From the NCBI GenBank assembly GCA_046541715.1, contig JBKHCS010000006.1:1-53123 (forward strand): a stretch of DNA of 53,123 nucleotides, written 5' to 3'. Below the pieces are notes generated by a model, which saw only the letters and a program-made list of their open reading frames with translations, was not told the origin of the DNA and searched no databases. Shown here one piece after another: positions 3,348 through 12,635 of this stretch. The DNA comes from Spirochaetaceae bacterium. Lineage in GTDB: Bacteria > Spirochaetota > Spirochaetia > DSM-27196 > PWMO01. The first letter of the stretch is position 1; each line of letters starts with the position of its first letter. A program made the translations under genes and the position numbers.

Positions 3348-3423
3348 GCAGCTCTCTACCTTACACCACCGTGCGGGTAACGGCGCCGCTTGGCGGTCGC
3401 CGGGAGGGATCGCGGCTCCAAGG

Positions 3424-3452
3424 TTGACCTTACCCGGGGGCCGTGCTACAAG
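3424..3452 (+). promoter_or_regulatory. sigma70 promoter of ppa, probably leaderless
   Basis: TTGACC-17 bp-TACAAG with extended TG, 6 nt before ATG 3459. Confidence 0.55.
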
Positions 3453-3458
3453 AGTTAC

Positions 3459-4028
3459 ATGAACGCCTGGCATGATATCGATGCCGCACGCATCACCGCG
3501 GAGAAGTTCGTAGCGATAATCGAGATTCCTAAGGGGAGTAAGAAGAAGTACGAGCTCGACAAGGCGACAGGTCTGATCAAGCTGGACCGGATTCTTTTCA
3601 CCTCCACCCATTACCCATCCAACTACGGTTTTATTCCTCGGACCTTGGCGGACGACAACGACCCCCTGGATGTGCTGGTCCTCTGTTCGGAGGTGCTCGA
3701 CCCGTTGACGATGGTGGAGTGCTATCCGATCGGTGTTGTCAAAATGGTGGACAACCAAGAGGTGGACGAGAAGATCATAGCGATCCCCTTTCGGGATCCG
3801 GTCTACTCCGGATATCGTGATGTTTCAACCTTGCCGCAGCACGTGCTCCACGAGATCTCCCACTTCTTCGAGGTGTACAAGGCGCTCGAGCATTCGGAGA
3901 CCTCGGTCAAGACGATCCTCGATCGGGAGAAGGCTCTCGAAATTATCGAGGCTTCGAAAGAGAGCTACGACGAGGCGTTTCCGGTGGAGGAGAGCGAAAC
4001 GGCGATGGAGGCGGAGGTCGAGAAGTAG
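3459..4028 (+). CDS. ppa: Family I inorganic pyrophosphatase
   Basis: [41 protein letters not shown]. Start moved to ATG 3459 (MNAWHD). Confidence 0.95.
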
Positions 4029-4055
4029 GCGGCGCCCAGAGGCGTGCCGGAATCC

Positions 4056-4712
4056 CTACATCAGAGAGAGGGCTCCCTCGATTCGCATGGCCGCCTTGCC
4101 ACGGTGGCTGAGAAGGTTCTTTTCTTCAGGCTCAATATCCGCGACACAGAGACCCCGCTCGGGGAGGTAGAAGATCGGGTCGTAGCCGAAGCCGGTGGTA
4201 CCGGATGAGGGGGTGTGGGCGATCTCGCCCTCCCAAGTCTCCTGGGCCTGGACGAAGCGGTTCTCTCCGAGGATGAGCGTCATGGAGCAGACGTAGTAGG
4301 CGCTCCGGTTCTCCACCTCTCGGAGCTCGCCGAGGAGGCGCCGGTTCTTCTCCTCGTCCGAGAGCGTTCTTCCCTCCTCCGCCTCTCCGTATCGGGCCGA
4401 GAAGACCCCCGGGCGCCCTTCGAGGGCGCGTACGGCAAGGCCCGAGTCGTCCGCAATGACCGGCAGGAGCCGTCCCGCCGCGGCGATTTCCTCCGGGGGC
4501 CGCGAACTCTCCACTCCCTTTTCGGCGACGCCTTTCAAGAGGCGATAGAGGCCAAAGGCTTTTCCAAAACTGTTATCCGCAAAGGTGAGACCGGTCTCAT
4601 CGTACTCATACTGAAAGCCGAGATCTCCGGGAAGCAGGAGGGTGTGCTCCTTGAGAATCAGTGAGAGCTCTCGACGTTTATGCTCGTTTGCCGTAGCCAG
4701 AACTATCTCCAT
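4056..4712 (-). CDS. rdgB: Non-canonical purine NTP pyrophosphatase (Ham1/RdgB)
   Basis: LATANEHK, ADDSGL, PGVFSARY, GFGYDPIF, SHRGKA. Start at MEIVL (4712) with RBS AGGA. Confidence 0.92.
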   Translation of the reverse strand: MEIVLATANEHKRRELSLILKEHTLLLPGDLGFQYEYDETGLTFADNSFGKAFGLYRLLKGVAEKGVESSRPPEEIAAAGRLLPVIADDSGLAVRALEGRPGVFSARYGEAEEGRTLSDEEKNRRLLGELREVENRSAYYVCSMTLILGENRFVQAQETWEGEIAHTPSSGTTGFGYDPIFYLPERGLCVADIEPEEKNLLSHRGKAAMRIEGALSLM

Positions 4713-4725
4713 TATTCCTGCGATC

Positions 4726-5655
4726 CTACGGTAAAGGGCGGTCCCTTTCAACCGACCGGCACTCCTCGGCCACCGCTTCCCGGCTGCTCTGACTCCTGAG
4801 GACGGAGCGGACGTAGAAGATCCCTGAGTCAACGCTCCCCTTTGGAACGGCGAGGAGCTTGGCGATTTCACGATTGGTTACGTAGTCCGGGACATGGTCG
4901 ATTTTCTTGGTAAGCGCCCGGAAACGTTCCTCTTGGAGCTCAATCGCTTGTCGGAGCCGAGTACGTCGCGGTTCTTCCGGAGTCGCTTCGAGCTCCTTTC
5001 GGAGGGAGTGGAGGTGACAGGTAAGTTCGTTCTGCTGTTCTTGAAGGGTTCTGCGGCGCCTCACCCGGGGTTGCAGAGTATCGGCGAGCTCCCGGGCGAG
5101 CTCCAGGAGCCTCGGCTGGTCGATCTCGAGAAAAGAAGCCATCTCGGCGAGGGTTTCCTCGGAGGCGTAGAGGGAGCACTTGAGGGTGACGTAGAGGAGT
5201 CGCTGCTTAAACGCCTTTGGATGGACACGCTGGTTGTGGGAGCGGTACGCTTCGGCGGCCTCCTTCAGTACGGTTACCGGGAGCTCTTGGTCTCTTTCCT
5301 CCGGTGCTATCTCCGCGAAGCTCCGAAGAGGGTCGCCGCCGGTTTTCCAGAAATTGGGATCCTCCGGAAGGCCTTTTCGAAAGCGCTCGCGCACTTTCCG
5401 GGAGGCGAAGCTCTTGAGCTGGTAACGGACCGCGGTTGCAAGGTACGCCTCGAAACTGCCGAGCGCCGGATCGTAGCGGTAGATCATGGCGCGGATTCTT
5501 CTATGGAAGAAGAGGGCGAACTCGCTGCGCTGATCCTCGTCGAGATGGGTGGCACTACGCCAGACGGCGGTCCAAACGACCTCAATCGTCGCCTGGAGGG
5601 AAGCTCTCCCCTCCTGGAATGCGATCACCTGCTCCGTGAGACTCCCCGGTTTCAC
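4726..5655 (-). CDS. Atypical sigma70-family protein (region 2, coiled-coil insert, region 4 HTH)
   Basis: RYDPALGSFEAYLATAVRYQLKS resembles regions 2.3-2.4; TNREIAKLLAVPKGSVDSGIFYVR resembles the region 4.2 HTH. GTG start with SD AAGGAGGAG. Confidence 0.7.
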   Translation of the reverse strand: MKPGSLTEQVIAFQEGRASLQATIEVVWTAVWRSATHLDEDQRSEFALFFHRRIRAMIYRYDPALGSFEAYLATAVRYQLKSFASRKVRERFRKGLPEDPNFWKTGGDPLRSFAEIAPEERDQELPVTVLKEAAEAYRSHNQRVHPKAFKQRLLYVTLKCSLYASEETLAEMASFLEIDQPRLLELARELADTLQPRVRRRRTLQEQQNELTCHLHSLRKELEATPEEPRRTRLRQAIELQEERFRALTKKIDHVPDYVTNREIAKLLAVPKGSVDSGIFYVRSVLRSQSSREAVAEECRSVERDRPLP

Positions 5656-5690
5656 ACGCTCCTCCTTATCCTTGTGGTACCGGAGTCATT

Positions 5691-5706
5691 AGCAAGGGGT
5701 CTGCCA
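5691..5706 (-). promoter_or_regulatory. sigma54 (RpoN) -24/-12 promoter
   Basis: TGGCAGACCCCTTGCT has exact GG-N10-GC spacing and lies ~35 nt upstream of the sigma-like gene start. Confidence 0.75.
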
Positions 5707-5868
5707 AGTAGTAGACGGAATATCGGTTCCGCTGCCGGCGGGAGTAGCGGTGCGCTTCGAGGGCGAAAGTGCGGAAGTTGTGTCAGGGCCGAACGGTGGG
5801 CCGAAGCGGGCAGGGACCGGAAGGTTCGAGAGCGCGATTTTCCAGGGGAAAGCGAGTGTTACAATGCG

Positions 5869-6885
5869 TTACAATTGACTCGCCGAGGCGGAGCTAGGCG
5901 GGTAGCCGTTCTGGCTCTCCAGCCGCTCGGTGACGAGGCGGACCACTTTCGCGGTAGTTTCCTGCAAGGAGCCGCGGTTTAGAAAGCCCGCCGCCTTCTG
6001 GTGACCGCCGCCACCGAGATGGGTAGCGATTTCTCCCACATCGATCTCGCTGGTGGCTCGGAGGCTGCCTTTGCAGACGGTCTCCGACTCCTCCCGCACG
6101 AAGGCGATAACCTCGCACTCCTCGATACTCAGGAGAAGCTGGTAGAGGGTGTCGGAGTCCCTGTTCTCCTTGCCGAACTCTCTCCGCTCCGCCGCGGTCA
6201 TATAAGTGAGAATGAAGCGTCCCCCGGCGTGAGATGTGGCGCGTTCGAGGAGGCGTCCAATCAGCTTTCTCGAGGCGAAGGTGCGGCCCCCGCTGATGAG
6301 GGCGCTGCTCTCTCGCGGCGAGGCACCGGCGTCCGTAAGCCTCCCGGCGGCGTGAAAGACATCGCCGCCGTTCTGGTCCAAAAAGCGGAAGAAACCGGTG
6401 TCTGTGGCGAGGCCGAAGAAAAGCATACTCGCCTCATCCGGAGCGGGGGTTTCCTCGAAGGATTCGATCACCGCCTGAACCATGAGGGTTGTGGCAGGAA
6501 TCGAGGGGTCCACGAACCGGATGTCCCCGAAGTGCTCCCCCGAGGCGTGGTGGTCGATCACCGCCACGGGTCGCCCGTCGAGCTGCGCGGCAAGATCGCC
6601 GATGCGGTCCAGGGTGGAGCTGTCGAGGATTATGACCGCTTCCTGTTCGCTCGTACGTCTCGGTAGCTCCGAGGCAAAGCGGGAGGCGAAATGACGTACC
6701 TCGGCACGCTCGAAGGGACCGGGATTGACTAGGTGAGCCTTCTTTCCGCTCCTGTTGAGAAAGAGGGCGAGAGCGATCTGGGAGCCGATACAGTCTCCAT
6801 CCGGTTCGATGTGCCCGAGTACGTGGAAATGGTCAAAGTCCCGAAGAAACTGGAGCAGTTCCTCCGGGACGGGTTGGCGTTGCAT
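5869..6885 (-). CDS. nrnA: DHH/DHHA1 phosphoesterase (nanoRNase/pAp phosphatase)
   Basis: HIEPDGDCIGS, IDHH, TDTGFFRF, GGGHQKAAG. Confidence 0.88.
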   Translation of the reverse strand: MQRQPVPEELLQFLRDFDHFHVLGHIEPDGDCIGSQIALALFLNRSGKKAHLVNPGPFERAEVRHFASRFASELPRRTSEQEAVIILDSSTLDRIGDLAAQLDGRPVAVIDHHASGEHFGDIRFVDPSIPATTLMVQAVIESFEETPAPDEASMLFFGLATDTGFFRFLDQNGGDVFHAAGRLTDAGASPRESSALISGGRTFASRKLIGRLLERATSHAGGRFILTYMTAAERREFGKENRDSDTLYQLLLSIEECEVIAFVREESETVCKGSLRATSEIDVGEIATHLGGGGHQKAAGFLNRGSLQETTAKVVRLVTERLESQNGYPPSSASASQL

Positions 6886-6931
6886 ACTCTTTTTGCGGAT
6901 CAGCAGGTGAGCAGGGCCCCGCCCGGGGAGC

Positions 6932-7351
6932 TCAGTACTCTAAGGCGAGGGTCTCGATCGCGAACTCTTCCTCGAGATCGGCTCCGTTGGGGAGTTGGTC
7001 CCAGGCCGAATGATAGGGGCTCTCGGGGACAAAGAGGCGAAGATGGCTGAACTCTCCGTCGACGTAGTAGACGACCATATAGGGCACCGTCTTATCTATG
7101 CTGTGGACGAGTTCGGCCTTTCCGGCGGCCTCGGTAAACCAGCGCCCCGGGAGGTACGCCTCCTGAAAATAGAGCTCGCTGTCGTTGTACTCGATTTTGT
7201 ATCCCAGGCTATGTCGGTAGACTGTATTGAGGTAGACCGTCATGGGGTAGATCACGGGATCTTCACCATCCGTCGTCTCCGCTTCTTGCGTGAACGCCAC
7301 TGCAGTGGCGATGACGAGGATGAGTAGAACTAAGAGTAGACGGTGTCGCAT
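6932..7351 (-). CDS. Hypothetical exported protein
   Basis: Sec-type signal peptide, GGAGG RBS, upstream TTGCGC-17-TATACT promoter. Confidence 0.8.
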   Translation of the reverse strand: MRHRLLLVLLILVIATAVAFTQEAETTDGEDPVIYPMTVYLNTVYRHSLGYKIEYNDSELYFQEAYLPGRWFTEAAGKAELVHSIDKTVPYMVVYYVDGEFSHLRLFVPESPYHSAWDQLPNGADLEEEFAIETLALEY

Positions 7352-7408
7352 CCATGCCTCCTGTGACTCTTCTCATTGAAGTATACGGAAAGATCGACCC
7401 CGGCGCAA

Positions 7409-8344
7409 CTAAACTCGTCCGAGAGTCGCAAGCATCACCGCCTTAATGGTGTGCTTTCGGTTTTCCGCTTCCTCCCAGACTCTCGAATGGGGGCCGTCGA
7501 TTACCCCCGGGGTCACCTCGTTTCCCCGGACCGCCGGGAGACAGTGGAGGAAAACCGGTGGATTCGCCCGGGCGAAGAGCGCTTCGTTCACCTGGTACGG
7601 GCCGAGGAGCGCTCGCCGCTCCCTCTCCTTCGACTCCTCTCCCATGGAGTACCAGACGTCGGTGTAAATCGCGTCGGCGTCCCGCACCGCGTCTTCCACC
7701 TCTGTTGTTATCTCTACAGTGGCTCCGGAGGATTTTGCGAACTGCTCGGCGAGCTTCACGAGGGTATCTTCGGGCTGCAGCTCCTCGGGTGCACTGACGC
7801 ATATGTTGACGCCGGTGAGGGAGCAGGCGATAAGGAGGGAGTTGGCTACGTTGTTTCGACCGTCTCCGACGAAGCTGAGCTTCGCTCCGTTGAGGGTGCC
7901 AACTTCCTCCTTGAGGGTCATGAGGTCGGCGAGAGCCTGCGTGGGGTGGTAGAGGTCCGTGAGGCCGTTGTAGACGGGCACCCCGGAGTAGGTTGCGAGG
8001 GTTTCTACGGTTTTCTGTTCGAATCCTCGAAACTGAATAGCGTCGAACATGCGCCCGAGAACTCGGGCGGTATCCTCGATAGTCTCCTTAGCGCCGAGCT
8101 GGATATCCGCGTTAGAGAGAAAGACTGGATGGCCCCCCTCCTCGCCGAAGGCGGTCTCGAAGGCGCACCGGGTGCGGGTGGAGCGCTTTTCGAACAGCAA
8201 CGCGATCGAGAGCCCTTCGAAGCGACGTGCTCGGGTGCCCTCCCTGGACTCCTTCTTCAGCCGCTCCGCAAGCTCGATGAGGTACTCCACTTCCTCTCGG
8301 CTGTACTCAGCGAGAGTTAGCAATGATCTACCCTGAAGTTTCAC
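7409..8344 (-). CDS. argF: Ornithine carbamoyltransferase
   Basis: KRSTRTR, HPTQ, DVWYSMG, FLHCLP. Probable GTG start at 8344 overlapping the end of lon. Confidence 0.92.
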   Translation of the reverse strand: MKLQGRSLLTLAEYSREEVEYLIELAERLKKESREGTRARRFEGLSIALLFEKRSTRTRCAFETAFGEEGGHPVFLSNADIQLGAKETIEDTARVLGRMFDAIQFRGFEQKTVETLATYSGVPVYNGLTDLYHPTQALADLMTLKEEVGTLNGAKLSFVGDGRNNVANSLLIACSLTGVNICVSAPEELQPEDTLVKLAEQFAKSSGATVEITTEVEDAVRDADAIYTDVWYSMGEESKERERRALLGPYQVNEALFARANPPVFLHCLPAVRGNEVTPGVIDGPHSRVWEEAENRKHTIKAVMLATLGRV

Positions 8345-10772
8345 TCTTTGCGCCCTCTGTGAATAGATGAATTTGTCCCGGAACGATGCTTCGTCTCCGC
8401 TTCCGGCTCGGAAAGAACATTGCCTCGGGAAAAAGGAGTTGAAGGGCTTCCAGAACGGTGTCAGCATAGTGCAATTGGAGCTGCTTGGCTACCTCACGGG
8501 GAAGCTCATCAGCGTCCTTTCGGTTGACCCCCGGAAGGAGAATGTTGCCGACGTTGTGCCGGTGGGCGGCGAGGCACTTCTCCTTAATGCCCCCCACGGG
8601 CAGAACCCGTCCGGTGAGGGTAATCTCGCCGGTCATGGCGAAATCACCCCGCGGAACCTCTCCGACGAGGGCTGAGAGAATGGAGATTACCAGGGTGATT
8701 CCCGCGGAGGGACCGTCTTTCGGTATGGCGCCTTCGGGAACGTGTATATGAATGTCCCGGGAGGCCAGGCTGGGTATCTCGCTGCTGAAGTACTCCCGGC
8801 AGGAGCGCAGATAAGAGAGGGCGGTCCTGGCGCTCTCTTTCATCACCTCTCCGAGGTTACCGGTGAGAATGAGCTCTCCCTTGCCCTTATAGAGCACCGT
8901 TTCGATCGGTAGGAGCATGCCGCCCATTTCGGTCCATGCTAATCCGTTGGCCAGGCCAACCCGGGGCTCGGCGTAGAGGAGGGAGCGCTCGTACTTCGGG
9001 TTTCCGAGGCTCTGCTTAACGAGTTTCGGGGTTACCTGCTTCTTGAACCCCTCCACGTCGATCTTCTCCGCCGCTGACGCCTTTCGGGCGAGCTTGCGGA
9101 TCACTCCGGAAATCTCTCGCTCCAGGTTCCGAACGCCGGACTCCATGGTGTAGTTGCGAATAATATCGAGGAGGGCGTTCTTCTGAAAGGTAATATGCGC
9201 CTTTTCTAATCCGTGCTCTCGCAGCTGTTTCGGCACGATAAACTGGTTTGCGATGTGGAGCTTTTCGATCTCCGAGTAGCCGGGGATCTCGATCACCTCC
9301 ATGCGGTCCCGCAAGGGCCAGGGGATGGTGTGCAGGGAGTTGGCGGTGGTGACGAAGAGCACCTCCGAGAGGTCGTAGGAAAGCTCCAGGTAGTGGTCCA
9401 CAAAGGTCTTGTTCTGCTCCGGATCGAGGACCTCGAGCATGGCGCTCGCCGGGTCTCCGCGAAAGTCGGAACTCATCTTGTCGATCTCGTCGAGGAGAAA
9501 GAGGGGGTTCCGGCTCTTCGCCTTTCGGATGGACTGAATAATCTTGCCCGGGAGCGCGCCGACGTAGGTTCTTCGGTGGCCGCGAATCTCCGCCTCGTCT
9601 CGGACGCCGCCGAGGGAGATGCGAACGAACTCTCGGCCCAGGGCGCGGGCGAGGGACTGGCCGAGGGAGGTCTTGCCGGTGCCGGGGGGGCCGACGAAAC
9701 AGAGAATAGGCCCTTTGAGATGGCCGTTCAGCTTGCGTACGGCGATGTAGTCGAGAATGCGATCCTTCGGCTTCTGCATGTCGTAGTGATCCTCATCGAG
9801 GATCCTGGTGGCGACGCCGATGTCGAGTTGCTCTTCGCTCTTTTCGAACCAGGGGAGCTCGATGAGCCAGTCGAGATAGGTCCGAATGATGCCCGCCTCG
9901 GGAGAGATGGGCTGCAGCTTTCGTAGCCGTCCGAGCTCCTTCTCTACCCGCTCCCGCACCGCCTCCGGGAGCTTCTTCTCCTTCAGGGCGCTCTCGATCT
10001 CCTTGGCGCCGGTAAGGTCCTCCTCCTCCTCCTGGCCGAGCTCCTTGTTGAGCTCCTTGACCTGTTCCTTGAGGTAGTAGTCCCGCTGCCCCTTTTCCAT
10101 CCGCTTCTGAACCCGCACGGAGATCTGCCGCTTTAGCTCGAAGACCTCGATCTCCGTGTTGAGCGCCACCGCGAGGTCCTCCAGGCGCGGCTTGACGCCG
10201 GGGCGCTCGAGGAGGTCGTTCTTCTTTTCCAGGGGAAGGGCGACGTTGGTCGCCACCAGATAGATGAGGCGCTCCGGGTCGTCCGCCCGGGAGACCGCGC
10301 TCCTCGCATCTCGGGAGATCTTCTTGTTCACACCGGCGTACTGCTCAAAGGCGTCCTGAATGGTGCGAATGTAGGTTCGCAGGCTCTCCCCGGTGGGTAT
10401 GTTGACGCTCTCGATCGGATTGACCTTTGCGTAGATCGGCTCGCCGGACTCGTATCGGAGGACCGAGGCGCGCTTCTTTCCTTCTATGAGAATTCGCAGG
10501 GAACCGTCCGGGAGCTTCATCATTTGGAGAATGTGAGCAACGGTTCCTGACTTGTAGAGCTCCGCGGTGGATGGTTGCACCACCGGGCGGGTCTGGGAGA
10601 CGACGAAGATTTGCCGATCCCGGTTCATCGCCTCCTGCACCGCCTGGACGGCGGGCTTACGGTTGACGAAAACCGGAATCGTCGTAGTGGGGTAGAGGAT
10701 GCTCTCCTTGAGCGGGAGCACCGGGAAGGTTGACCCCTCTTCCCGGTTCATCACCTTGTCCAGAAGCTTCAT
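8328..10772 (-). CDS. lon: ATP-dependent protease La
   Basis: Lon N domain, GPPGTGKT, LLDEIDK, PKDGPSAG (catalytic Ser), GGIKEK. Confidence 0.97.
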   Translation of the reverse strand: MKLLDKVMNREEGSTFPVLPLKESILYPTTTIPVFVNRKPAVQAVQEAMNRDRQIFVVSQTRPVVQPSTAELYKSGTVAHILQMMKLPDGSLRILIEGKKRASVLRYESGEPIYAKVNPIESVNIPTGESLRTYIRTIQDAFEQYAGVNKKISRDARSAVSRADDPERLIYLVATNVALPLEKKNDLLERPGVKPRLEDLAVALNTEIEVFELKRQISVRVQKRMEKGQRDYYLKEQVKELNKELGQEEEEDLTGAKEIESALKEKKLPEAVRERVEKELGRLRKLQPISPEAGIIRTYLDWLIELPWFEKSEEQLDIGVATRILDEDHYDMQKPKDRILDYIAVRKLNGHLKGPILCFVGPPGTGKTSLGQSLARALGREFVRISLGGVRDEAEIRGHRRTYVGALPGKIIQSIRKAKSRNPLFLLDEIDKMSSDFRGDPASAMLEVLDPEQNKTFVDHYLELSYDLSEVLFVTTANSLHTIPWPLRDRMEVIEIPGYSEIEKLHIANQFIVPKQLREHGLEKAHITFQKNALLDIIRNYTMESGVRNLEREISGVIRKLARKASAAEKIDVEGFKKQVTPKLVKQSLGNPKYERSLLYAEPRVGLANGLAWTEMGGMLLPIETVLYKGKGELILTGNLGEVMKESARTALSYLRSCREYFSSEIPSLASRDIHIHVPEGAIPKDGPSAGITLVISILSALVGEVPRGDFAMTGEITLTGRVLPVGGIKEKCLAAHRHNVGNILLPGVNRKDADELPREVAKQLQLHYADTVLEALQLLFPEAMFFPSRKRRRSIVPGQIHLFTEGAKSETSG

Positions 10773-10782
10773 GGAAGCGACC

Positions 10783-12024
10783 TCAGGCGGACTTCTGGAT
10801 AACGCTGACTTCCGGCTTCTCGGAGTTCTCCACTACCTCTCGCGTGATTACTACCCGTTTCTTACCCTCCATTGAAGGCAACTCGAACATGATCTCCATC
10901 ATTATGCTCTCGACTATCGCTCGCAGTCCCCGGGCGCCGGTCTTTCGGCTCATGGCGAGGGTCGCCATAGCCTGAATCGCCTCGTCCTCGAATACGAGGT
11001 CGACCTCGTCGAGCTTGAGAGAGGCTTGGTACTGGCGCAGGATGGAGTTCTTCGGCTCCTTGAGGATGCGCTCCAGGTCGGTGACATCGAGGTCGCTGAG
11101 GGTAACGCTAATGGGAAGCCGTCCGACAAACTCCGGAATTAGGCCGAATCGAACCATGTCCTCCGGGTGGAGGTGCTTGAAGAGCTCGACGATGTCCTTT
11201 TCCTTGGTCGCTTTGACGTCGGCGCCAAATCCCATGGGCTGTTTCGAGACCCGCGCTTCGACGATTTTGTCGAGGCCCACGAAGGCTCCCCCGACGATAA
11301 AGAGAATATTGTCGGTGTTGATCCGAATCATCTCCTGGCTCGGATGCTTTCGGCCTCCCTGGGGAGGGACGGAGGCGACGGTGCCCTCGATAATCTTGAG
11401 GAGCGCCTGCTGTACGCCCTCACCGGAGACGTCCCGGGTAATGGAGGCGTTCTCGCTCTTTCGGGCGATCTTGTCGATCTCGTCGATGTAGATTATGCCG
11501 CGCTCGGTGGCGGCGATATTGCCGCCGGCGTTCTGATAGAGCTTGAGGAGGATGTTCTCCACATCCTCACCGACGTATCCCGCTTCGGTGAGCGTGGTGG
11601 CGTCGGCGATGGCGAAGGGGACTTTCAGCTTCTGGGCGAGGGTCTTTGCGAGCAGGGTCTTGCCGGTTCCGGTAGAGCCTATCATGAGAACGTTGGATTT
11701 CTCGATTTCCACATCCTCTTCGATTCGGCTCTTCTGGGTAATCCGCTTGTAGTGATTGTAGACCGCAACGGAGAGCACCTTCTTGGCCGCCTCCTGCCCC
11801 ACCACGTAGAGATCGAGGTACTCCTTGATCTCCCGGGGCGAGGGAACGCTCTCCATGAATTCCGAGGTGAGAATGTCATCCTCTTCGTCGATAATGCGCT
11901 TACAGACGTTGACGCACTCGTCGCATATATATACCCCGGGGCCCGCAATGAGACGACGCGCCAACTCCGCCTTCTTACCACAGAAGGAGCACGATTTGCC
12001 GCTTTCGCTGCGCTGTTTGATCAT
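10783..12024 (-). CDS. clpX: ClpX ATPase
   Basis: CSFCGK...CDEC zinc finger, [29 protein letters not shown] 12024 overlaps the clpP stop (ATGA). Confidence 0.97.
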
Positions 12025-12635
12025 GCTGATTCGCTGTTCCCCCCTCGAACAAGTACTTCGTCTACTATCCCATATTCTACACTCTCCTGGGCGGACATGA
12101 AATAGTCTCGTTCGAGATCGGAAGCGATTTTCGCCTCGGTTTGGCCGGTATGCTGGGCAAAATAGCTGATAAGCATCTCTTTGAGGCGTAGGATTTCCCG
12201 AGCCTGGATGCCGATATCGCTCGCCTGCCCCTGTACGCCGCCCCACGGCTGATGAATCAGGATTCTGGAAGAGGGTAGGGCCCGTCGTTTGCCCGGGGCA
12301 CCGCTGGCGAGCAGAATAGCCGCCATCGAGGCTGCCTGCCCCATGCAAATGGTGGAAACGTCCGGCTTTATGTACTGAATCGTGTCGTAGATCGCCAGCC
12401 CCGCGGTGACCGAGCCACCGGGAGAGTTGATGTAAAGGTTTATGTCCTTCTCCGGGTCCTGGCTCTCGAGAAAGAGAAGCTGCGCCACAATGAGGTCGGA
12501 GGTTACGTCGTGAATAGTGCCGTCGAGAAAGACGATCCTATCTTTGAGGAGCCGAGAGTAGATGTCGTAGGAGCGTTCTCCCGCCCCGGTCTGCTCCACT
12601 ACGATGGGGACGAGGTTACTGTTTCGTGTGTCCAT
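12021..12635 (-). CDS. clpP: ClpP protease subunit
   Basis: [28 protein letters not shown]. Start at 12635 or 12650. Confidence 0.97.

Follow-up and report, generated by a model that had tools for sequence, protein, structure and literature searches.

A candidate sigma-54-driven cascade to a sigma70-like protein of an uncharacterised branch in one clade of Spirochaetia

Introduction

Does a sigma-54 promoter in a Spirochaetaceae bacterium switch on a sigma-like protein of a kind that has not been characterised? The question is raised by a stretch of 53,123 nucleotides (nt) from this organism (contig JBKHCS010000006.1 of assembly GCA_046541715.1, positions 1 to 53,123; hereafter the window), in which a sigma-54-type -24/-12 element precedes a gene, here called X, for a 309-aa divergent sigma70-family-like protein. 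An earlier note, made from the letters of the window, had read this arrangement as a cascade from RpoN to an orphan sigma factor. Cascades in which sigma-54 drives another sigma factor are known from few systems (Borrelia RpoS, HrpL), and among spirochaetes the Borrelia cascade is regarded as an oddity of one reduced pathogen.

Our analysis points to a cascade shared across a clade of Spirochaetia, in which sigma-54 controls a sigma-like protein belonging to an uncharacterised branch of the sigma70 family, and we give this reading a probability of roughly 0.7. We propose that an RpoN promoter lying ~25-70 nt before the start codon would drive X, probably together with rdgB, and that an AAA+ enhancer-binding protein (EBP) would open it. 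A GTAAM-N5-GTAAM repeat, helically phased with the -24 element, would be the likely docking site of the activator or of a co-activator. The product would combine an extracytoplasmic-function (ECF)-like sigma-2 domain (residues ~1-95) with a sigma-4 helix-turn-helix (HTH; ~259-300), with ~160 residues between them. The cascade proposed in the earlier note was thus upheld as regards conserved cis-elements and a sigma-like product, and narrowed as regards its scope, which appears to be one clade of a wider family.

Results

The element, TGGCAGACCCCTTGCT, occupies 5691..5706 on the minus strand and reads TGGCAG-N5-TTGCT, matching 10 of 11 consensus positions, with GG and GC 10 nt apart exactly as in TGGCAC-N5-TTGCW. 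It lies 35 nt from the GTG of X (open reading frame (ORF) 4726..5655, minus strand; GTG 5655..5653, TAG 4728..4726), and a Shine-Dalgarno sequence, AAGGAGG, sits at 5661..5667 on the same strand, 5 nt 5' of that start; the exact element and its spacing had been correctly described in the earlier note. Sigma-54 promoters usually start transcription about 12 nt downstream of the -12 element, which here would place the start of X at 5680 (minus strand), ~12 nt past the C of the -12 GC. Within the window alone, TGGCAGACCCCTTGCT is no more than chance would give: TGGC-N7-TTGC occurs twice against 0.87 expected, and at least two occurrences were found in 20 of 100 shuffles. Its significance comes only through conservation in relatives. 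The sole other match in the window is TGGCGGCGATATTGC, at 11508-11522 on the plus strand.

Relatives were collected with a profile from 14 first homologues, which led to 39 loci in species-representative genomes, 37 of them titled as Spirochaetota metagenome-assembled genomes (MAGs) and two titled 'bacterium' only. One locus has no upstream DNA, so that promoter and repeat counts are out of 38. The X proteins of these loci are mostly 20-32% identical to that of the window. Because an nrnA-like gene lies 5' of X in 36 of the 39 loci and rdgB lies 3' of it in 31, the loci are, judged by gene order, positional orthologues despite this low protein identity. Starts of X in the relatives are estimates from alignment offsets. 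The promoter score is the best GG-anchored match to the sigma-54 consensus (11 specified positions) no more than 160 nt 5' of the estimated start, and the control consists of 730 random 155-nt windows from the same loci, put through the same procedure.

The best element scores 11 in 16 loci, 10 in 8, 9 in 12 and 8 in 2. Thus 36 of 38 loci score 9 or more and 24 of 38 score 10 or more, while among the 730 control windows 17 and 2, respectively, do so; no control window (0/730) scores 11. Both GG and GC, together with a score of at least 9, are kept in 32 of the 38. From the end of the element to the estimated start of X the distance is 12-132 nt, mostly 23-73 nt. The motif is thus kept upstream of orthologs, as the earlier reading would have it, and given this pattern of conservation we consider it very probable that the X promoter is used in vivo.

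RpoN itself is encoded in the source genome, a MAG of 213 contigs and 3.3 Mb (G000), with a match of 406 bits against a cut-off of 277. Its presence there agrees with the proposed cascade; the co-occurrence of motif and rpoN that had also been suggested proved uninformative as a check, because rpoN is found in 147 of the 151 genomes of the phylum that we sampled. The X profile has matches in 114 of the 151, mostly distant ones. Two X-positive draft genomes (G005, G025) have no rpoN match. In the class sample, no X was found in the genomes of smallest size, of 1.1 and 1.2 Mb.

How far does the promoter extend across the X family? In a quick FastTree tree of X (67 rows, several long branches) a single clade of 45 rows, with Shimodaira-Hasegawa-like support of 99, holds 41 of the 42 rows labelled promoter-bearing. 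Its rows comprise these 41 with a sigma-54 element, two Treponema-like ones with TTGCAC and two without an element; outside it, a score-9 site occurs in 1 of 20 rows. Among distant family members, neither a sigma-54 element nor nrnA/rdgB synteny was seen at the other 19 of a set of 30 loci (mostly of our search-family f13); in 20 further regions from search-families f9, f14, f19, f21, f23, f34, f39, f40 and f41 a GG+GC element with a score of 9 or more was likewise absent, as was the nrnA/rdgB gene order. At many f13 loci the ORF upstream extends as far as the start of the X-like gene or overlaps it, and sequence context suggests that loci of the f13 type are a separate, operon-embedded subfamily. 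On these distributions the cascade appears confined to one clade of the wider X family. In many of the loci L082, L085-L090, L092-L095, L097-L099 and L102 (mostly f13) the start of the distant X-like gene comes directly after, or overlaps, the end of a larger upstream ORF.

Aligning the upstream regions on the -24 element brought out a second conserved feature, a tandem direct repeat. In the window it is GTAACGCATTGTAAC, GTAAC-N5-GTAAC with a 10-bp period, at 5858..5872 on the minus strand, a candidate activator or co-activator site that sits 151 nt 5' of the -24 element and contains the TAA stop codon of the nrnA-like gene. The form across the family is GTAA[A/C/G]-N5-GTAA[A/C/G], often TGTAAA-N4-TGTAAA, again with a 10-bp period. 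Upstream of the -24 element, 30 of the 38 loci match the strict pattern GTAAM-N5-GTAAM and 33 a looser form; no repeat was found in L014, L030, L034, L037 and L038. All 35 strict occurrences in the 562,954 nt of locus DNA (39 loci, both strands) are on the coding strand and no more than 400 nt upstream of X, and the number elsewhere in that DNA is 0. Genome-wide, G000 has 17 strict sites in 6.67 Mb (both strands of the 3.3-Mb genome), and in each of two complete relatives there are just two, the site upstream of X being one; near the second site in G094 and G030 no sigma-54 element was seen.

The distances from the repeat to the -24 element are 26-27, 36-40, 46-51, 58-62, 107-108, 118-119, 124, 151 and 159 nt. 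For 28 loci, near-duplicates left out, a Rayleigh test at period 10 gives R 0.58 with a nominal p of ~8e-5, a post hoc value from related loci, and the best-fitting period is 10.25. Such helical phasing is what one would expect if the protein bound to the repeat must face the polymerase. Inspection by eye of the sequences after the repeats turned up no consistent sigma-28-like -10 element. A GTAAAC...GTTTAC site of G000 (contig C147, ~27595, minus strand) was considered as the same element and set aside, being an inverted repeat and probably unrelated to X. It lies between the gene of an EBP of the REC-AAA-HTH_8 type (C147:27623-28960) and a divergent ORF with an 11/11 sigma-54 element (27412), and it is plausibly, from its form and place, a classical enhancer for the neighbouring EBP.

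What kind of protein would such a promoter produce? Although X has no family-level match in Pfam or NCBIfam, where only weak ECF matches to its C-terminus appear, the family is large: the X profile finds 1,249 cluster representatives at E<=1e-3, 870 at <=1e-10 and 281 at <=1e-30. Nearly all members are 280-330 aa long (among 150 listed), and homologues in the source databases are unnamed or 'hypothetical protein'. When 129 members were scanned singly at E<=0.01, Sigma70_r4_2 matched 25, Sigma70_r2 11, Sigma70_r4 3 and Sigma70_r3 2. The full model of X, of the AlphaFold2 type (AF2), is all-helical with a mean predicted local distance difference test score (pLDDT) of 79.7 and helices at residues 6-14, 20-34, 40-60, 68-95, 126-139, 146-163, 166-176, 180-224, 230-253, 261-268 and 272-304.

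Three parts of the protein can be recognised. Residues 1-95 (5371..5655, minus strand) form a predicted sigma-2-like four-helix domain, on the combined indications of the AF2-type model, structure search and hhalign. A model of residues 1-105 from 28 orthologues has a pLDDT of 89.2, and when it was compared by VIA-align with 48,161 PDB chains, rows 1-23 were all sigma factors or initiation complexes by their entry titles. Six chains reach Z>=8, all of them sigma factors, with M. tuberculosis SigC region 2 at their head (2o7g_B; Z 9.3, root-mean-square deviation 2.8 A, 84 of 89 residues aligned). Searched with the full model of X, VIA returned a list swamped by helical-hairpin matches. At the other end, residues 259-300 (4756..4881, minus strand) make up a sigma-4-like HTH with a near-invariant PKGSVDSG, as judged by the family alignment, hhalign and Sigma70_r4_2. 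The ~160 residues between these regions include a small helical module (146-176) and an antiparallel, coiled-coil-like helical hairpin at residues 180-253 (4897..5118, minus strand; AF2 helices 180-224 and 230-253).

Profile comparison agrees with this division. Against a reference of 56 ECF sigmas, built around one ECF gene of G000, hhalign gives X a probability of 90.5% (E 1.4e-6), the printed alignment placing residues 16-97 on ECF region 2. Without realignment, residues 260-293 fall on the ECF sigma-4 HTH (probability 90.5%, E 1.4e-6). An alternative alignment places residues 20-200 on ECF 31-191 (probability 86.4%, E 4.7e-6); here residues ~146-200 align to ECF sigma-4, so that X may contain another HTH-like module in degenerate form. 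A region-2-like segment and a region-4 HTH parted by a long helical insert had been read from the bare translation, and hhalign, AF2 and VIA-align converge on the same layout, with the sigma-2 fold of the N-terminal domain and the profile similarity to ECF sigma-2 and sigma-4 both in its favour. Profiles and models together indicate sigma70 ancestry for X, with group 4 (ECF) as its nearest relatives. That X also attaches to the RNA polymerase core and functions as a sigma factor is a reading we favour by a modest degree.

Candidates for the activator are numerous. A Sigma54_activat domain is found in full (E 1e-75 to 7e-57) in 12 proteins of G000: six REC-AAA proteins (HTH_8 type), two with GAF, two with PAS, one PspF-like and one RtcR-like, the six REC proteins including one REC-AAA protein without a DNA-binding domain (L052). 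A relative with a genome of 1.8 Mb, whose X gene follows nrnA and bears a TGGCAT-N5-TTGCA element, has only two EBPs at E<=1e-30, a 266-aa AAA-only protein and a 448-aa REC-AAA-HTH_8 protein; the latter shares 65% identity along its entire length with the product of G000 C7:61677-63068. From this comparison we tentatively name that NtrC/Rrp2-like REC-AAA-HTH_8 protein as a possible activator of X.

G000 also has two RpoS/RpoD-like genes, C7:54796-55680 and C169:51536-52396 (294 and 286 aa), which score 247-341 bits against models of the RpoS/RpoD kind, the scores of 247-305 bits to RpoD/RpoS models being below the equivalog cut-offs. Both carry an 11/11 sigma-54 element 20-32 nt 5' of the start (C7 ~55728, minus strand; C169 ~51515, plus strand). 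The C7 gene lies ~6 kb from the Rrp2-like EBP gene C7:61677-63068, an arrangement that presumably resembles the rrp2...rpoS neighbourhood of Borrelia. Judged by these elements, RpoN may stand above three sigma-family genes in the source organism, X and the two RpoS/RpoD-like ones. A scan of G000 lists 39 sites matching the sigma-54 consensus at 10/11 or better; some lie 20-66 nt 5' of ORFs whose putative products, judged by N-terminal sequence, are a glutamine synthetase, a glutamate synthase large subunit, three Hsp20-type proteins and a CsbD-like protein.

The neighbours of X in the window are housekeeping genes. Downstream lies rdgB, for a Ham1-family non-canonical NTP pyrophosphatase (4056..4712, minus strand; Pfam Ham1p_like E 8.6e-47, TIGR00042 E 6.5e-40), whose ATG (4712) is 13 nt from the stop of X; in the related loci the median gap from the X stop to the start of the rdgB tblastn match is ~16 nt, an approximate figure. 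Upstream lies the gene for an nrnA-like DHH/DHHA1 phosphoesterase (5869..6885, minus strand). A simple scan of the minus strand found no terminator-like site between the nrnA-like gene, X and rdgB, and a sigma70-like hexamer pair just 5' of rdgB (4751..4723) is at chance level in such a scan. The linkage to rdgB proposed in the earlier note fits the short gap, the lack of a terminator-like site in that scan and the recurrence of rdgB downstream in relatives, and rdgB is probably co-transcribed with X. That note's remark on the lack of an anti-sigma gene also holds: a Pfam/NCBIfam scan of the genes adjoining X in the window revealed no anti-sigma-like gene.

In one Spirochaetia clade the gene order is lipoprotein-like, nrnA-like, X, rdgB. 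A 139-aa ORF with a hydrophobic N-terminus lies 5' of the nrnA-like gene of the window (6932-7351, minus strand); it has a tblastn match at the equivalent position in 26 of the 39 related loci and is therefore a member of the conserved block. The predicted 5' leader of X (5640-5685, minus strand) can form a hairpin of -14.8 kcal/mol (z -2.4; equalled in 2 of 200 shuffles), in which the sequence right after the predicted transcription start pairs with the first codons of X and the Shine-Dalgarno sequence is in the loop. Rfam gave nothing above chance in window 4600-6000.

One further copy of the locus is found within G000. Contig C120 (10,393 nt) is collinear with window 3400-12600 over ppa, rdgB, X, the nrnA-like gene, the lipoprotein-like gene, argF and the next gene, without lon; tblastx segments are 26-82% identical, GC contents are 0.608 and 0.598 for contig and window, and its X copy bears the same sigma-54 element and GTAAM repeat. 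We considered this X as a second paralogue and set the idea aside, since the collinearity makes a second related organism in the bin more likely than duplication. C120 thus probably comes from another, related spirochaete whose DNA was binned with the MAG, with a large old duplication as the alternative. A single rpoC was found in G000 despite this reading.

Discussion

Several observations weigh against a cascade in which sigma-54 drives a working sigma factor throughout the clade. As to the promoter, 6 of 38 loci lack a canonical element: five have TGGCAC or TGGTAT but TTGT, CTGT or TTGA at -12, and L026 retains GC with a score of only 8/11. In L078-L081, four complete genomes from one Treponema-like genus, the sequence is TTGCAC-N5-TTGCT, with TG in place of the normally invariant -24 GG, and the nrnA-like gene is not upstream of X while rdgB is still downstream; their element may be either a decayed promoter or an unusual one. 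L074 and L091, which fall inside the promoter clade, have no sigma-54 element. The repeat is not universal either: the Treponema-like branch (L034, L037, L038) has no clear copy, and likewise, by eye, the AT-rich relative G054. Sites of NtrC-type EBPs are usually inverted repeats, and the GTAAM repeats are direct. The loci are moreover related and include several near-identical pairs, so that our counts overstate independence; the tree of X has many deep lineages despite this kinship.

As to the protein, the Pfam Sigma70_r2 match is sub-threshold (residues 58-88, E 0.0033, 17.6 against 24 bits) and TIGR02937 reaches 16.1 against 42.9 bits. Foldseek searches of PDB with the full model and with the N-terminal domain gave no match at E<=0.001, the list for the latter being topped by sigma-2 chains that are not significant. 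Hidden Markov model searches of PDB sequences gave no significant sigma match (best E 0.06-0.14), returning weak sigma-4 hits (E 0.06-0.5) and coiled-coil noise. Against a low-diversity alignment of FliA/RpoS-type (group-3/2) sigmas the hhalign probability is 3%, with no support for a sigma-3 region, and the long insert of X is unlike any ECF linker.

Could these points be better explained in another way? One other explanation would be that the -24/-12 match is not a working sigma-54 promoter, that X is expressed by read-through from nrnA or from a sigma70-type promoter, and that the sequence is conserved for another purpose. The chance-level status of the motif within the window, the lack of a terminator-like site between nrnA and X in our scan, and the non-canonical -12 or -24 dinucleotides of several lineages would all fit. 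However, exactly the sigma-54 consensus positions are kept while the spacer varies and the proteins are mostly 20-32% identical, a pattern that is hard to explain otherwise, and the same scan finds sites in G000 before ORFs whose N-terminal sequences resemble typical sigma-54 targets. We regard this explanation as very improbable. Another alternative, to which we assign a clearly smaller chance than to a functional sigma, is that X is sigma-derived and no longer a sigma, serving as a DNA-binding regulator or an RNA-polymerase-associated factor. Its two HTH-like modules, spaced by the hairpin, might for example bind both GTAAM repeats and feed back on its own promoter. Scores below the family cut-offs and a 160-residue insert with a hairpin would be natural for such a protein; the alignment of residues ~146-200 to ECF sigma-4 makes two HTH-like modules possible, the two repeat copies lie on one helix face, and the near-exclusive presence of the repeat at the X promoter in two complete relatives fits an autoregulatory site. 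Yet the sigma-2 domain is the best-conserved and most confidently modelled part of X, and we know of no role for that domain beyond core binding and -10 recognition.

A further alternative concerns the protein that binds the repeat. Because the repeats are direct and not inverted, a separate co-activator, or X itself, is a live alternative to an EBP. A co-activator of the OmpR/PhoB type or of the Fur family, similar to BosR, might occupy the GTAAM repeats while the EBP acts from solution or from another site. Such a protein would suit a direct repeat of 10-bp period in fixed orientation, phased and, at most loci, with 26-62 nt between its near edge and the -24 element. It would also suit a genome that encodes both a Fur-family protein and, in L052, an EBP lacking a DNA-binding domain. 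In Borrelia, according to excerpts of PMC3037356, BosR binds direct repeats at the sigma-54 promoter of rpoS. Against this, no candidate protein is linked to the locus, and the presence of a Fur gene is uninformative, the family being found in 4 of 5 genomes checked. BosR was moreover reinterpreted in 2024 as an RNA-binding protein, as excerpts of PMC11109971 have it. We think a separate co-activator possible and on the whole unlikely.

If, as we prefer, sigma-54 drives a sigma-like X, how does this cascade compare with known ones? Like the Rrp2-RpoN-RpoS system of Borrelia burgdorferi, it is found in the same phylum, has a -24/-12 promoter directly before an alternative sigma-family gene and has an NtrC-like REC-AAA-HTH activator available. 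Unlike Borrelia RpoS, X matches no RpoS/RpoD model and is ECF-like with a large insert, and its source genome has in addition two RpoS/RpoD-like genes with sigma-54 promoters of their own. Short direct repeats with a TAAA core occur at or upstream of the promoter in Borrelia rpoS too (excerpts of PMC3037356); there they are contiguous TAAAT pentamers, whereas at X the unit is GTAAM at a 10-bp period. The closest precedent for sigma-54 driving a group-4-like sigma is HrpL: in Pseudomonas syringae and Erwinia, HrpR/HrpS and sigma-54 drive hrpL, which encodes an ECF-type sigma, as described in excerpts of PMC5263251. HrpL, however, is a short canonical ECF sigma in a type III secretion cluster, while X has 309 aa, a 160-residue insert and sub-threshold scores, and lies between housekeeping genes.

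Compared with ECF (group 4) sigmas at large, X shares the sigma-2 fold followed by a sigma-4 HTH with no recognisable sigma-3. It departs from them in its linker (~160 residues with a hairpin rather than a short loop), its length (309 aa against ~170-220 aa), its scores below curated cut-offs, the lack of an anti-sigma neighbour and its sigma-54-type promoter; ECF genes are commonly under an autoregulated ECF-type promoter. SigI of Clostridium thermocellum resembles X in its sigma-2 structure (8i24_F, Z 8.0), and both stand off the standard sigma-2/sigma-4 layout. No sequence relationship between the two was seen beyond the sigma-2 fold, and to our knowledge SigI does not have the arrangement of a hairpin plus sigma-4. 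In the open full-text literature, to which our search was directed, the portions covered gave no account of the X family or, for Treponema or Spirochaeta, of a sigma-like gene preceded by a sigma-54 promoter, and excerpts of a 2025 review of Leptospira sigma factors (PMC12655853) contain no account of the X family. Thus, while cascades of this logic are already known, we met no earlier description in that literature of the protein it feeds here, of the enhancer-like repeat or of conservation throughout a clade.

Going further, in a reading that we hold possible and somewhat less likely than not, X might found a new sigma70 group (sigma-2, a small helical module, a coiled-coil hairpin, sigma-4). 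In Spirochaetia other than Borrelia it would be a conserved target of RpoN, perhaps the main one, and an Rrp2-like activator or a new co-activator would turn it on by way of a phased enhancer, the GTAAM tandem repeat. The RpoN-RpoS pathway of Borrelia would then be a remnant of an older sigma-54 network over several sigma-family genes.

More generally, our analysis suggests that the same logic would be hard-wired in free-living and host-associated Spirochaetia, where it would feed a family that databases call hypothetical. It also suggests that several sigma-family genes of the phylum may be under the control of RpoN. The locus offers three objects for study: a promoter prediction, a candidate enhancer with sharp limits and what may be a new sigma architecture. 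Should X prove to be a true sigma, its regulon would probably be of a size that matters for spirochaete physiology; should it not, X would be an example of a sigma fold re-used for another role.

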